Below, piece after piece: positions 55,282-61,740 of a DNA stretch of 61,740 nucleotides. The translations under genes and the position numbers were made by a program. The first letter of the stretch is position 1; each line of letters starts with the position of its first letter. This DNA comes from Christensenellales bacterium (lineage in GTDB: Bacteria > Bacillota > Clostridia > Christensenellales > CAG-917). The notes beneath the pieces are model-generated. The model did not search any database, was not told the DNA's origin, and worked only from the letters and a program-made list of their open reading frames with translations. The stretch lies in assembly GCA_048394785.1 (NCBI GenBank), contig DBFJGL010000056.1:1-61740 (forward strand), written 5' to 3'.

Positions 55282-55544
55282 GAATGTACCGCGACGAAAC
55301 GATGAACATTGAAGCGCTTATTACAGCCGAAGTAAAGCGTTTGTCCGAAAAATACGGCAAATCCTATCTCGACTGCGAAGAACTGGTTGAAATGACCGGA
55401 CTGGGGCGCGATAATGTCCGCGCCCTTATGGGCAGCGCAAATTTTCCCGTAACCTGCGTAGGCAATCGCAAAGTTGTCAGTATCCTTGCTTTTGTCACTT
55501 GGCAGATGCGCGGTTTTGACAAGGGAGGTAACTATGCCGCGTAA
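55272..55544 (+). CDS. excisionase-type HTH DNA-binding protein
   Basis: 90 aa. LDCEELVEMTGLGRDNVRALMGSANFPV is Xis/MerR-like. It overlaps the integrase start. Confidence 0.6.
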   Translation: MLMRMYRDETMNIEALITAEVKRLSEKYGKSYLDCEELVEMTGLGRDNVRALMGSANFPVTCVGNRKVVSILAFVTWQMRGFDKGGNYAA

Positions 55545-56985
55545 AAAAACCGCCACTCGGCGCGGAAACGGCGAAGGCTCTATCTATCAACGCAAAGACG
55601 GCCTTTGGATTTCGCAAATCACAATAGGCTTAAAACCGAACGGTAAGCCTGACAGAAAGACGTTTACGGGCAAAACCCGCGCGGAAGTCGCCACGAAAAT
55701 GATACCGTACTTAAATCAGGACACGGGCAAAGTTCACGTCGCCCGCGAGGACGTGTCCATTGAAAAACACATGATGTTCTGGCTGATGAACTATAAAATC
55801 ACGACCGTAGCGCCGCGCACGTTTGAATCGCAGGTACGAAATGCCAAGCGGCATATCTTTCCCGTGTTCGGGAATTTTCGTCCGCAGGATTTGAACATAG
55901 ACAATCTGCAACCGTTTTTCAAGGGACTGCTCAACTGCTTTGAACTCGACACGGTGAAGAAAATCAAATATCTGTTTTCGGACTATCTCGAATACTGTAC
56001 GGACAGAGGTTTGATTGACGGCAACCCGATTACGCGTATCAAGTTCAAGTCCATTGAACGCAAGGCAAAGTCCAATCCCGAAGGCATCGAAGAAAAGGCT
56101 ATGCCCGAAGAATTGCGGGAACCGTTTCTGAAAGCGCTCAACACCGACCGACTGTTCAAGGCATTTTGCCTGACGGCTATGTTTGCAGGTTTACGTCCGG
56201 GCGAAGTCATCGGATTGAAATGGCGGGATGTAGATTTCAAGAACGGTACATTGTCTGTGGTGCGGGCAATGACCGTAGAGCCCGAATTTGACGACGAAGG
56301 AAATGTCGTCAAGCGAAATACGATCATCGGAAAAACAAAAACTGCGGGCAGCGTGCGGACAAATCCTATTCCCAAACTGCTTTTGGACGCATTGCAGGAA
56401 TGGAAAGAATACCGCACCGCCCAGCAACGGGAAACAGGCTATCCGCTTGCAGGAATCAACGATTTCGTATTCGGTACGGACAAGGGCGCTTTGCGTTCCT
56501 ATTCGGGTATCAAGCACATGTTCGACCGCTTTCTCAAACGTAACGGTCTGGATGATAAAGGCATCCATTTCTATGAGTTGCGCCACACCTTTTCCAATAC
56601 TTTGTTTGAACAGAATACCAATCCGCGCGTTGTACAATCCCTTATGGGACACCGCAAGATTGAAACGACTATGATATATAATACTGTAAGGGACAACAAG
56701 TATTTGGAAGGTGCGGTCGGCGTTTTCGACAGCCGATACGAAACAGCGGCGGAAGCCGTGGAAGAAAGCGAAGAACGAAAAAAATATTATAGACCGCCCA
56801 AGAATACAAGCGAAGACCGCACTGCTGCGACGCCAAAGAAACAACCGGCGCCCGATGGCGGTACAACTAAAACAGACGACCTTACGCAGAAAGTGGCGGC
56901 GTTTATGGCGGAAAACGGGATAGAAGATTTGGAAGAATTTTTGTCGGGTATCAAGAAAAAACAAAAAAACTTTCAAATGGACTAA
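55534..56985 (+). CDS. int: tyrosine-type site-specific integrase
   Basis: ATG 55534 lies after GGGAGG. N-terminus RRGNGEGSIYQRKDGLW is an SAM-like arm-binding region. Catalytic region GLRPGE...ELRHTFSN...LMGHRKIETTMIY corresponds to R..HxxR..Y. Confidence 0.9.
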   Translation: MPRKKTATRRGNGEGSIYQRKDGLWISQITIGLKPNGKPDRKTFTGKTRAEVATKMIPYLNQDTGKVHVAREDVSIEKHMMFWLMNYKITTVAPRTFESQVRNAKRHIFPVFGNFRPQDLNIDNLQPFFKGLLNCFELDTVKKIKYLFSDYLEYCTDRGLIDGNPITRIKFKSIERKAKSNPEGIEEKAMPEELREPFLKALNTDRLFKAFCLTAMFAGLRPGEVIGLKWRDVDFKNGTLSVVRAMTVEPEFDDEGNVVKRNTIIGKTKTAGSVRTNPIPKLLLDALQEWKEYRTAQQRETGYPLAGINDFVFGTDKGALRSYSGIKHMFDRFLKRNGLDDKGIHFYELRHTFSNTLFEQNTNPRVVQSLMGHRKIETTMIYNTVRDNKYLEGAVGVFDSRYETAAEAVEESEERKKYYRPPKNTSEDRTAATPKKQPAPDGGTTKTDDLTQKVAAFMAENGIEDLEEFLSGIKKKQKNFQMD

Positions 56986-57242: not shown

Positions 57243-57318
<76 letters not shown>

Positions 57319-59572: not shown

Positions 59573-59615
59573 TAAACGAAAGGCAACAATATGCCGATAG
59601 ACAGTTTTAATATGC

Positions 59616-59650
59616 AAAACCGCACGATAAAGTGCGGTTTTGCTATTTTT
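59616..59650 (+). terminator. rho-independent terminator
   Basis: Stem AAAACCGCAC (59616-59625) / GTGCGGTTTT (59632-59641), followed by GCTATTTTT. Confidence 0.75.
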
Positions 59651-59722
59651 ATAACGGTGATAATGCATTTCGTAAAGACGGGTGCGGGATTAGTGTGCGT
59701 TCCTATTTAGGGGATTGCCGCG

Positions 59723-59872
59723 CGCTCGAAAATTGTTTCGCTCGCATTATTGTGACGGTTGTCGCAATTTAACTCGCTCCTGAAATTTTCTCGCATTCCG
59801 CGTGCGTTATGTTGCGCACTGCGTGCTTCACGCTTAATCGCACGCGGGTTCCTGTGTATAAGTTATAGTCGC
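59723..59872 (+). repeat. 150-bp repeat module, copy 1
   Basis: CGCTCGAAAATTG...AGTTATAGTCGC, nearly identical to copies 2-4. Contains the hairpin ATTGTGAC-GGTT-GTCGCAAT and the 50-nt hairpin at 59798-59847. Confidence 0.9.
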
Positions 59873-60056
59873 TTACTTAGGGGATTGCCGCGCGTTGCTC
59901 GCAATGACAGGTTATATATAGTGTCACTGCGAACGGAGTGAATGTAATGAACGGAGTGCGGCAGTCCCATATACAGAAACTTTATGTACGGGAATAAGTT
60001 ATCGTCGTTTATTTAGGGGATTGCTTCGTCACTCTTTTATCGTTCCTCGCAATGAC

Positions 60057-60206
60057 CGCTCGAAAATTGTTTCGCTCGCATTATTGTGACGGTTGTCACA
60101 ATGCAACTCGCTCCTGAAATTTTCTCGCATTCCGCGTGCGTTATGTTGCGCACTGCGTGCTTCACGCTTAATCGCACGCGGGTTCCTGTGTATAAGTTAT
60201 AGTCGC
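60057..60206 (+). repeat. 150-bp repeat module, copy 2
   Basis: Same module with a few substitutions. Its 50-nt hairpin is at 60132-60181. Confidence 0.9.
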
Positions 60207-60242
60207 CTGTTTAGGGGATTGCCGCGCGTTGCTCGCAATGAC

Positions 60243-60392
60243 CGCTCGAAAATTGTTACGCTCATATTATTGTGACGGTTGTCACAATTTAACTCGCTCC
60301 TGAAATTTTCTCGCATTCCGCGTGCGTTATGTTGCGCACTGCGTGCTATACGCTTAATCGCACGCGGGTTCCTGTGTATAAGTTATAGTCGC
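60243..60392 (+). repeat. 150-bp repeat module, copy 3
   Basis: Same module. Its 50-nt hairpin is at 60318-60367. Confidence 0.9.
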
Positions 60393-60440
60393 CTGTTTAG
60401 GGGATTGCTTCGTCACTCTTTTATCGTTCCTCGCAATGAC

Positions 60441-60590
60441 CGCTCGAAAATTGTTTCGCTCGCATTATTATGACGGTTGTCACAATTTAACTCGCTCCTG
60501 AAATTTTCTCGCATTCCGCGTGCGTTATGTTGCGCACTGCGTGCTTCACGCTTAATCGCACGCGGGTTCCTGTGTATAAGTTATAGTCGC
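60441..60590 (+). repeat. 150-bp repeat module, copy 4
   Basis: Same module. Its 50-nt hairpin is at 60516-60565. Confidence 0.9.
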
Positions 60591-61107
60591 TTACTTAGGG
60601 GATTGCCACGCTACGCTCGCAATGACAGGGTAATATAAACGATTCAATCGGATAAATCGAAAACGCAATGATAGTCCTCCTCCCGTGTCACTGCGAATGG
60701 AACGAACGTAGTGAGTGAAATGTGGCAGTCCCCTATGTAGAGGAGAATGCTGTGCGGATGGTGATTAGTGAGCGTTTCTATGTAGAGGAATATGCTTGTG
60801 TTTCGGAGAAAATACCTTATCCCATCGTGTCATTGCGAATGAAACGAGCGTAGCGAGTGAAATGCGGCAATCCCCGATGTAGAGGAATACAGTAGATATT
60901 ACAGATAATAGGGTCTTCGTTCCTATTTAGGGGATTGCCACGGGGCATTGCGCAAAGCACAACACCCCTCGCAATGACAGTATAAACATGGTCGCAAACG
61001 GATAAATATACTTGTAGCAACGACCGCATATACAAAGCGTCACTGCGAGGAACGGAGTGACGCGGCAGTCCCCTATGCAGAGATGTACGCTGTGAGTTAC
61101 CGCCCCA

Positions 61108-61157
61108 CCGCGTGTGCGGTAGCGTGTAGCACGCAGTGCGGAACATAACACACGCGG
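61108..61157 (-). repeat. diverged inverted copy of the 50-nt hairpin from the 150-bp module
   Basis: The reverse complement aligns position for position with the forward hairpin. The stem is CCGCGTGTG/CACACGCGG here against CCGCGTGCG/CGCACGCGG in the forward copies, a compensatory pair change. Confidence 0.75.
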
Positions 61158-61160
61158 AAT

Positions 61161-61190
61161 AAAAAAATAGCAAATAATATTGCTATTTTT
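61161..61190 (-). terminator. bidirectional-looking terminator hairpin after the AT-rich gene
   Basis: An A7 run, stem ATAGCAA (61167-61173) / TTGCTAT (61180-61186), then a T-run. Confidence 0.55.
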
Positions 61191-61195
61191 CTCTA

Positions 61196-61732
61196 TTAAC
61201 AAAAATAATTATCATAACCATTTTCAGAATGTAGAGTTTTCCCTTTTAACTGTAAATTGCTCTCAGAAGGCAAATTAACGATGAAACTTGTTTCTTTGGC
61301 TTCTTCTTTAACTTCTAATTCTTCAAATGTTATTGGCTGACTAATTTCAACTTTTTCAAGATATCCATCTTTCATCTTGTTTAAATATTCTTCTTGATTT
61401 GAAAGGAAACCAGTTCTACCTGACAAGTTTATAGTAAAAATACTATTTGCAGAAGCTAAAACAACTGATGTTTGTAAAAACCCTCCAGAAACACCCTCAA
61501 ATTCAGTTGCATTTAAAATTTCAAGTTTATTTGGGTCTATGTTATTTTGTGAAAAGTAATCTTTAACCTCTTGTTGTTCATATGCAAATGCTGCAATATC
61601 GTTTGCTAATTGTTGTTCTTGAACTGATTGTTCAATTTGATTAAAATCTGAAAAAGTAGTTTTATCTAAAGATTTATATAGGCTTTCAAACTTATCGACA
61701 TTTGACATATCTGCGGATTGAAGAGACATCAA
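61196..61732 (-). CDS. hypothetical protein encoded by a strongly AT-rich gene (possibly 5'-truncated by the window edge)
   Basis: 178-aa ORF. There is no in-frame stop between the first ATG and the window end. The composition is visibly far more AT-rich than every other gene in the window. No motif recognised. Confidence 0.6.
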   Translation of the reverse strand: MMSLQSADMSNVDKFESLYKSLDKTTFSDFNQIEQSVQEQQLANDIAAFAYEQQEVKDYFSQNNIDPNKLEILNATEFEGVSGGFLQTSVVLASANSIFTINLSGRTGFLSNQEEYLNKMKDGYLEKVEISQPITFEELEVKEEAKETSFIVNLPSESNLQLKGKTLHSENGYDNYFC

Positions 61733-61740
61733 ACCCTTAC

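Follow-up and report, generated by a model that had tools for sequence, protein, structure and literature searches.

The closest described counterparts of the locus studied here, a repeat-packed intergenic gap in a 61,740-nt stretch of Christensenellales DNA (contig DBFJGL010000056.1; the whole 61.7-kb stretch is referred to as the window), are found in Neisseria. In the NIME arrays of this genus, RS repeats of 50-150 bp are flanked by dRS3 hairpins (Parkhill 2000, as cited in Bentley 2007, PMC1797815); the arrays are dynamic, adjoin variable genes and, as of 2007, were unobserved outside Neisseria (PMC1797815). About half of the dRS3 copies belong to a longer oriented motif, NTS (CGTCATTCCCGCGMAVGCGGGAATCYRG), and NTS-like Ssn-related motifs (SRM) flank homologues of SsnA in many phyla, in an arrangement around ssn genes that was noted to resemble insertion sequences (IS), and cluster beside particular genes (Chenal et al., Nat Commun 2025, PMC11893778). 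According to the same study, SsnA, a single-domain GIY-YIG protein of 94 amino acids (aa; CDD cd10448), binds the hairpin only as single-stranded DNA (ssDNA) and on one strand only, cleaves ssDNA just upstream of the hairpin, and does not act on double-stranded DNA (dsDNA) or RNA; strand-specific binding and cleavage of ssDNA are known solely for the Neisseria and Wolbachia enzymes, and in N. meningitidis the integration of transforming DNA carrying the repeats was lowered (PMC11893778).

The gap at positions 59707-61160 of the window (about 1.45 kb) is probably a mosaic array of the NIME type, built from ten intact and one truncated SRM hairpins with an ATTGC-type stem, four duplicated RS-like modules and smaller fragments. 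The DNA around it is non-coding from an ATC_hydrolase terminator (hairpin at 59614-59643) to the 3' end of a minus-strand gene of low G+C content (61196 onward). Read in this way, the locus adds one more case to a type of repeat array that is already known: the hairpin class was described in 2025, and the array type has been known since 2000. Its hairpin variant and its host lineage broaden this type, and no new category is required. The features of the array are listed below; copies of the short element that read TTAGGGGATTGC...CTCGCAATGAC on the plus strand are called forward and appear on the minus strand in the list, where the strand of the hairpins follows the NTS orientation.

59707..59722, minus strand: truncated SRM-type element (forward copy, 16 nt, truncated after TTAGGGGATTGCCGCG), the half CGCGGCAATCCCCTAA in NTS orientation, fused directly to module 1; junction also in contigs L001 and L002
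59723..59876, plus strand: module copy 1, 154 nt, RS-like spacer repeat
59877..59908, minus strand: SRM-type hairpin (forward copy), short form GTCATTGCGAGCAACGCGCGGCAATCCCCTAA
59923..59970, plus strand: SRM-type hairpin (reverse copy), ACTGC/GCAGT stem, facing the 59877 copy over a 14-nt spacer
60013..60056, minus strand: SRM-type hairpin (forward copy), long form GTCATTGCGAGGAACGATAAAAGAGTGACGAAGCAATCCCCTAA
60057..60210, plus strand: module copy 2, with a perfect TGTGA-N6-TCACA palindrome at 60085-60100
60211..60242, minus strand: SRM-type hairpin (forward copy), short form, identical to the 59877 copy
60243..60396, plus strand: module copy 3
60397..60440, minus strand: SRM-type hairpin (forward copy), long form, identical to the 60013 copy
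60441..60594, plus strand: module copy 4
60595..60626, minus strand: SRM-type hairpin (forward copy), short form GTCATTGCGAGCGTAGCGTGGCAATCCCCTAA
60687..60736, plus strand: SRM-type hairpin (reverse copy), ACTGC/GCAGT stem, then the extension motif TATGTAGAGGAGAATGCTGTG at 60734-60754
60779..60798, plus strand: solo extension motif TATGTAGAGGAATATGCTTG, without a hairpin
60829..60878, plus strand: SRM-type hairpin (reverse copy), ATTGC/GCAAT stem, extension motif at 60876-60896
60927..60978, minus strand: SRM-type hairpin (forward copy), intact long distal stem, -11.7 kcal/mol as DNA, z = -3.1
61039..61076, plus strand: SRM-type hairpin (reverse copy), ACTGC/GCAGT stem, extension motif at 61074-61094
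61108..61160, minus strand: inverted partial module core, 85% identical, right edge of the array

An earlier note on this DNA, made from its letters alone, had described two interleaved repeat families: eleven short elements (seven forward and four reverse, with a long variant) that carry ATTGC/GCAAT ends and in part face each other, and four nearly identical modules with start-to-start spacings of 334, 186 and 198 nt. This description was reproduced throughout, the short elements being hairpin-forming, the forward and reverse copies facing each other at all three proposed sites (59877/59923, 60595/60687 and 60927/61039) and the modules measuring 154 nt each, with the refinement that three of the reverse copies have ACTGC/GCAGT in place of ATTGC/GCAAT, altered on both sides. 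The inverted partial module at 61108-61160 and a third short repeat, TATGTAGAGGA(G)AAT.., had been overlooked; the latter trails plus-strand hairpins at 60734-60754, 60876-60896 and 61074-61094 and stands once alone (60779-60798). What has to be revised is the statement that no function had been described: the short element can be assigned to the NTS/SRM class, the ssDNA targets of Ssn (GIY-YIG) nucleases (PMC11893778), and the composite layout matches the NIME arrays long known in Neisseria (PMC1797815). The long cruciforms or tiny MITE-like units that the note proposed for the facing copies would be plausible for the doublets.

Within the window both repeat families are confined to the array. 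With up to two mismatches allowed, TTAGGGGATTGC matches the window at 15 sites, of which 11 belong to the array, against a mean of 3.85 in shuffled sequences, none of which (0/100) reached 15; the matches outside the array that were inspected (21977 and 32997) lack the second half of the element. A search by structural definition (GTC, five nucleotides starting with A, 5-75 nt, their complement, then C) returned ten copies in the array and elsewhere in the window two chance-level matches, both in coding sequence.

On its other strand the short element reads (N)GTCA(T/C)TGCGA...CG(Y)GGCA(A/G)TCCCCTAA, with a variable middle. All ten intact copies conform to GTC-A(T/C)TGC...GCA(A/G)T-CCC and thus share a 5-bp basal stem; they are 32-52 nt long with an interior of 12-32 nt, and the 3' tail of the element is CCCCTAA. 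The same architecture is constant in other loci, in which the basal stem ATTGC/GCAAT is followed by a conserved asymmetric internal loop, with YWC or YWCGTC opposite TC or TCCTC, and by a distal stem-loop that varies in both length and sequence. Among 31 distinct 44-nt copies from other genomes, 91.4% of the cells pair, compared with 80% after shuffling (reached in 0/500 shuffles) and 26-44% when the partners are slid; in the distal helix of these copies 85% of the cells pair, and changes on both sides are found in five of the seven distal pairs.

The likeness of this element to SRM and NTS lies in its oriented frame, GTC-AT...stem...AT-C (in NTS, CGTCATTCCCGCG..GCGGGAATCYRG), in its form as an imperfect inverted repeat of similar size (32-52 nt in the array, 20-50 nt for SRM), in its nearly always intergenic, multicopy and clustered occurrence across phyla, and in the presence of inverted copies around a single-domain GIY-YIG gene of about 100 aa, which for the ATTGC type was seen in loci L066, L073, L058 and L118-L127. 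The stem itself differs, being ATTGC/GCAAT in the array and ATTCCC/GGGAAT in SRM/NTS, and the array element has in addition a conserved internal loop, an inserted variable distal stem-loop and the CCCCTAA tail. Moreover, most of the Ssn hosts described so far are Gram-negative, and the present host is probably a Gram-positive clostridium of the gut. We place the element in the SRM class because of the shared frame, the flanking of GIY-YIG genes and the tracking of protein similarity by stem type; the published pattern omits this stem type.

When one genome per species was scanned with the pattern TTAGGGGATTGC-N(5-35)-CTCGCAATGAC, elements with identical ends were recovered from at least 115 stretches in more than 12 phyla. 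Their hosts include Chloroflexota, Bacteroidota, Ignavibacteria/Kapaibacteria, KSB1, Oscillospiraceae/Faecousia/Dysosmobacter, rumen Neisseriaceae, delta- and gamma-proteobacteria, Zixibacteria, Nitrospirae (Nitrospiraceae) and Melainabacteria. Among the matches listed, 146 of 157 copies were intergenic, with mixed orientation relative to the neighbouring genes, and at least three hairpins within 1.5 kb were present in 32 of the 115 other loci; the cluster in the window, with ten hairpins in 1.4 kb, is the largest seen, the maximum in the other loci among the matches listed being six. Inverted doublets are frequent, as in the self-complementary units of about 130 nt in Kapaibacterium, and tandem units of hairpin plus lineage-specific sequence were found in L007 (a 229-nt unit, twice) and L031 (a 222-nt unit, twice), with clusters also in L079.

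The element is also associated with small GIY-YIG genes. Six-frame open reading frames (ORFs) of at least 50 aa from the window and from the loci selected by the element were searched with phmmer; four of the 115 loci among the matches listed contained GIY-YIG proteins, and all four genes are directly flanked by the element or by sister types. The proteins are 98-109 aa long and consist of a single PF01541 domain over residues ~3-80. In L066 (Anaerolineales) hairpin doublets lie on both sides of the gene, in L073 (Bacteroidota) two copies of the element precede it, and in L058 (Faecousia) a truncated GIY-YIG pseudogene is bracketed by three ATTGC-type copies; the flanks in L033 (Oscillospiraceae) are of the ATCCT, ATTCC and ATTCT types. 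The L058 gene (5100-5460) has lost its N-terminal half exactly where an ATTGC-type hairpin starts, and two further copies lie on the opposite side. It represents an Ssn-like pseudogene that was disrupted at its own repeat or replaced by it.

An independent sample of 80 metagenome loci, fetched by GIY-YIG protein similarity and scanned for hairpins of the form GTC-X5...rcX5-C, exhibited the same association. A hairpin was present within 400 nt of the GIY-YIG gene in 74 of the 80 loci and on both sides in 54, and hairpin density was about ten-fold higher near the gene (4.9 per kb) than farther off (0.47 per kb). The GTC head yielded 276 matches near GIY-YIG genes, compared with 4-14 for six control trinucleotide heads. 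The four main stem types there were ATTCC (71), ATTCT (68), ATCCT (33) and ATTGC (25), and the human-gut metagenome loci L118-L127, those with the greatest similarity to the Oscillospiraceae protein, carry GTCATTGCGAG..CGTGGCAATC like the window. In the dominant, IS-like layout the upstream copy is on the strand of the gene and the downstream copy on the opposite strand; in the array, the 60829 and 60927 copies form a [NTS+][NTS-] doublet of the same layout as around GIY-YIG genes elsewhere. The GIY-YIG proteins are 61.6% identical within a stem type and 58.1% between types, a difference reached in none of 2000 permutations, and the nearest-neighbour protein shares the stem type in 36 of 67 cases. 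Such a correspondence between protein similarity and stem type would be expected of cognate pairs of enzyme and site. The earlier note had named as one possible refutation that the repeats prove to be a known IS or MITE family with identifiable transposase partners. In spirit this came true, as there is a GIY-YIG gene flanked by inverted copies in an IS-like manner; the partner, however, is a nuclease, and the likeness to IS is one of layout.

The four modules, which make up the second repeat family, have an identity of at least 96%, with just a handful of differing positions. The repeat units alternate between 186 nt (module plus a 32-nt hairpin) and 198 nt (module plus a 44-nt hairpin), and one right-hand junction is common to modules 1 and 4, another to modules 2 and 3. 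This identity, together with the pattern of units and junctions, indicates that the units were duplicated in tandem not long ago, when unequal exchange or slippage took place between hairpins. Each module contains a CRP/FNR- or Rex-like palindrome, TGTGA-N6-TCACA (59751-59766, 60085-60100, 60271-60286 and 60469-60484), of which two are perfect and two have one mismatch. A protein search with the pseudo-ORF of the module gave no homologue, and the modules contain no supported ORF.

The resemblance to NIME is seen in short hairpins that flank and alternate with repeat units of ~50-150 bp in a long intergenic array, in the dynamic copy number, in the vicinity of variable or foreign-looking genes, and in the G+C content of the short-form hairpins (0.56-0.63), which exceeds that of the modules (0.46-0.49). 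The "GC wave" of NIME is seen only in part, since the long hairpins (0.45) are not richer in G+C than the modules. The hairpins also differ, with ATTGC/GCAAT stems and interiors of 12-32 nt in the array compared with ATTCCC-N8-GGGAAT in dRS3, and there is a single spacer family here, seen only in this array among the sequences searched, whereas in Neisseria more than 100 RS families are spread over the genome.

Several results weigh against the assignment of the locus to a NIME-type array of SRM hairpins. The published SRM pattern, HGTCWYN(0-2)YYVSBRHN(0-5)WNVSBRGN(0-2)RNCYNB, matches none of the 11 copies, while a canonical NTS used as control does match; the failure is explained by a stem of TTGC where the pattern has YYVS and by an interior longer than it allows. 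By the published operational definition, the element is therefore not an SRM. As isolated ssDNA most local copies fold weakly, with z between -1 and +1, and only two exceed shuffled sequences significantly in fold stability, those at 60927-60978 (z = -3.1) and 61039-61076 (z = -2.6); for the second of these an alternative fold is predicted, in which GTCACT pairs with an interior AGTGAC in place of the canonical basal stem, and for 60687-60736 an alternative pairing of the 5' end (GTCACT...) with the interior is likewise predicted. The distal stem known from other genomes is missing in most local copies. Given the weak folds and the missing distal stem, several of them are possibly decayed relics, and according to the folding predictions decay may have affected many.

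The remaining points of this kind concern the partner protein and the module. The phmmer search of ORFs of at least 50 aa found no GIY-YIG gene within the window. For the GIY-YIG proteins associated with the element elsewhere, NCBIfam and PDB gave no specific match, and their assignment is based on Pfam PF01541, the single-domain architecture and the size of about 100 aa, and not on cd10448. The module found no match in the rest of the window, in 197 loci searched with blastn, or in viral and metagenome contigs subjected to exact-pattern scans, and as a putative RS-like spacer its origin is explained solely by analogy to RS elements.

It is plausible that the host, probably a member of Oscillospirales, has or formerly had a gene for a cognate Ssn elsewhere in its genome, beyond the window, and that copies of the hairpin reached a permissive intergenic spot by the spreading of SRM. 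The array would then have grown by unequal recombination or slippage between hairpins 186 or 198 nt apart, a process that would produce the alternation of short and long hairpins and the near identity of the modules. The copies in the array may be Ssn substrates; with four copies on the plus strand and six intact copies on the minus strand, either strand, once single-stranded, would present cleavable sites. The locus could thereby act as a boundary that modulates recombination between the core genes and the low-G+C gene.

Among other explanations, a role of the hairpins and/or modules as RNA, for instance as an array of small RNA genes, as stabilizers in 3'-untranslated regions or as terminators, is improbable. 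The covariation of the distal stem, the two local stems of the module and the occurrence of UNCG-type tetraloops on the TTAGGGG-strand only (15, compared with 0 for the reverse-complement class) could be accommodated by such a role. However, the module folds as RNA no better than shuffled sequences (z = -1.4 and -1.7), there is no Rfam match at the gathering threshold or at E <= 10 and no convincing pairing of promoters with terminators, the element is oriented both ways relative to flanking genes, and the characterized partner protein binds neither RNA nor dsDNA but only ssDNA.

Quite improbable, too, is a REP/BIME array, in which the hairpins would be REPs mobilized by a RAYT (a Y1 transposase like that of IS200/IS605) and the modules would be BIME linkers. 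The REP/BIME and RAYT systems of E. coli and Pseudomonas share with the present case the intergenic imperfect palindromes, the inverted doublets (REPIN-like in the ~130-nt units of Kapaibacterium), the clustering with further motifs into mosaics, a single domesticated gene for an enzyme that lies between its own repeats, and the recognition of hairpins in ssDNA; in L031, a GTAG-headed hairpin co-occurs with the element. The element itself nevertheless lacks a GTAG or GTGG head, and REPs are normally lineage-specific, whereas the frame of the element is common across phyla. It is a small GIY-YIG nuclease gene, not one for an HUH/Y1 transposase, that is flanked by the element in several phyla, and 669 ORFs of at least 110 aa (a cut-off that excludes the GIY-YIG partner of about 100 aa) from the 115 flanking loci among the matches listed formed only housekeeping families, with no recurrent transposase-like family. 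The related MITE/REPIN doublets bear a likeness in that facing copies delimit units of ~90-150 nt and in that the doublets of KSB1 lie inside an element bounded by terminal inverted repeats; in the window, no terminal inverted repeats were recognized beyond the hairpins.

It is very unlikely that the modules represent a regulatory array of binding sites, one CRP/FNR- or Rex-like palindrome in each. Four of the five window matches to TGTGANNNNNNTCACA with at most one mismatch are in the modules, two of them perfect, compared with a mean of 0.72 in shuffled sequences, but this enrichment arises simply from the duplication of one module, the palindrome is mutated in two of the four copies, and neither a regulated gene nor a promoter follows the modules.

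The possibility of an assembly artefact, which the earlier note had raised, was addressed by two short-read contigs from other samples (L001 and L002) that encode an identical ATC_hydrolase, with a flank identity of 100% in one and 94% in the other. Both reproduce the left junction, at which the truncated element is fused to the module, base for base and end about 10 nt into the module. The left boundary is thus not an assembly chimera, as two independent contigs contain it; at this edge, at least, the array is confirmed as real, and short-read assembly does not get through it. That the repeat region is collapsed or chimeric is the least probable of the explanations considered, because, even though short-read assemblies of the locus break at the array and no other recovered contig contains it, two independent samples share the unusual junction, the copies have their own substitutions, short and long hairpins alternate in order, and the right half consists of non-identical units.

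Two further array types were rejected. A CRISPR array likewise has regularly spaced short repeats with dyad symmetry; here the "spacers" are near-identical copies of the module and the repeats occur in both orientations and several lengths, so the earlier note was right to set CRISPR aside. For an integron attC array, the ends of the element (GTCAT../..AATCC) are not the R''/R' sites RYYYAAC / GTTRRRY, the modules are devoid of a supported ORF, and the nearby integrase is of the phage type and next to a tRNA-Thr gene.

If the locus is a NIME-type array of SRM hairpins, the reach of Ssn and SRM is extended to a hairpin type outside the published pattern and to probable Gram-positive gut bacteria, and counts of SRM obtained with that pattern probably underestimate the class, as the ATTGC type is missed (0/11 window copies). 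The hairpin/spacer layout of NIME would likewise not be confined to Neisseria, which bears on array formation and on recombination beside acquired genes. Ssn nucleases are under development as site-specific ssDNA cutters, and the new hairpin type together with the flanking GIY-YIG gene (L126, L125, L118 and L066) is a candidate pair of enzyme and site with a new specificity. More tentatively, the ATTGC type may constitute a distinct, hitherto uncharacterized SRM subfamily, marked by the conserved internal loop, by a distal stem that can expand and by its absence from the published pattern, with its own Ssn clade in gut Clostridia and many other phyla, and Ssn-linked NIME-like arrays may occur beyond Neisseria at boundaries between core and acquired genes; this is possible, and we regard it as clearly less likely than the assignment of the locus itself. 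Were it true, "hairpin plus spacer" arrays would be a general Ssn-dependent device of genome plasticity and not a peculiarity of Neisseria.

As to the surroundings of the array, the genes upstream are SDH_alpha and ATC_hydrolase, and the downstream gene (minus strand, 61196-61740) has a G+C content of about 30% compared with 50% for the window, in agreement with the placement of the array between core genes and a compositionally foreign gene in the earlier note. Among plasmid-database records, those nearest to the SDH_alpha protein are from Subdoligranulum and Vescimonas, with 46-48% identity, which is a weak hint of Oscillospirales. An AT-rich terminator-like hairpin lies beside this gene at 61160-61195. 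The gene has no Pfam domain, no exact record of it was found in the assembly index with either start, and an acquired island possibly has its border here. Farther to the left, a phage-type tyrosine integrase (PF00589 with a SAM-like N-terminal domain, 55474-56985) adjoins a tRNA-Thr(GGT) gene on the minus strand (57243-57318). The ~55 kb to the left of the integrase and tRNA-Thr look like an integrated prophage, for which megablast found no match in the phage collection.

Other genomes contain further arrangements of the hairpins. The mosaic or tandem arrays in L079 (1157-1920), L031 (5930-6370) and L007 (2464-2940) mix hairpin families of the ATTCC, TTTGC and ATTGC types; the units of 222-229 nt hold internal palindromes, and a GTAG-headed hairpin, GTAGGGTGGGTTTCCAACCCACC, is present in a Neisseriaceae array. 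A sister family in L079, GTCATTCCGA...GGAATCC, resembles the dRS3 of Neisseria (GTCATTCCC..GGGAATCC). In the KSB1 metagenome-assembled genome JAFGMA01 (L010, L024, L026, L049, L078, L085, L103, L106 and L110), hairpin doublets lie within a high-copy element of about 170 nt that is bounded by inverted repeats (TAGTGTCCGTCCGA...) and inside which many of the contigs end; here a MITE seems to have captured hairpins. Literature searches by the sequence of the element or by its peptide strings returned nothing useful.

Lastly, the repeats have consequences for annotation. The spurious ...ARNDR and ...SLR peptides to which the earlier note drew attention were seen in ORFs of the window, and in other loci there are ORFs with similar peptides fused to them. 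Pseudo-peptides of the ...LAMT / ...ARND / ...SLRG kind, a common nuisance in annotation, arise from GGGATTGC...GCAATGAC repeats in many phyla. In L016 (5839-7563), L052 (6295-7023) and L060 (2038-4857), long ORFs traverse hairpins and gain ...LLAMT.., ..CLAMT.. or ..SLRGGRSPTWQSP.. stretches, and such read-through of the repeats shows how predicted proteomes become contaminated.

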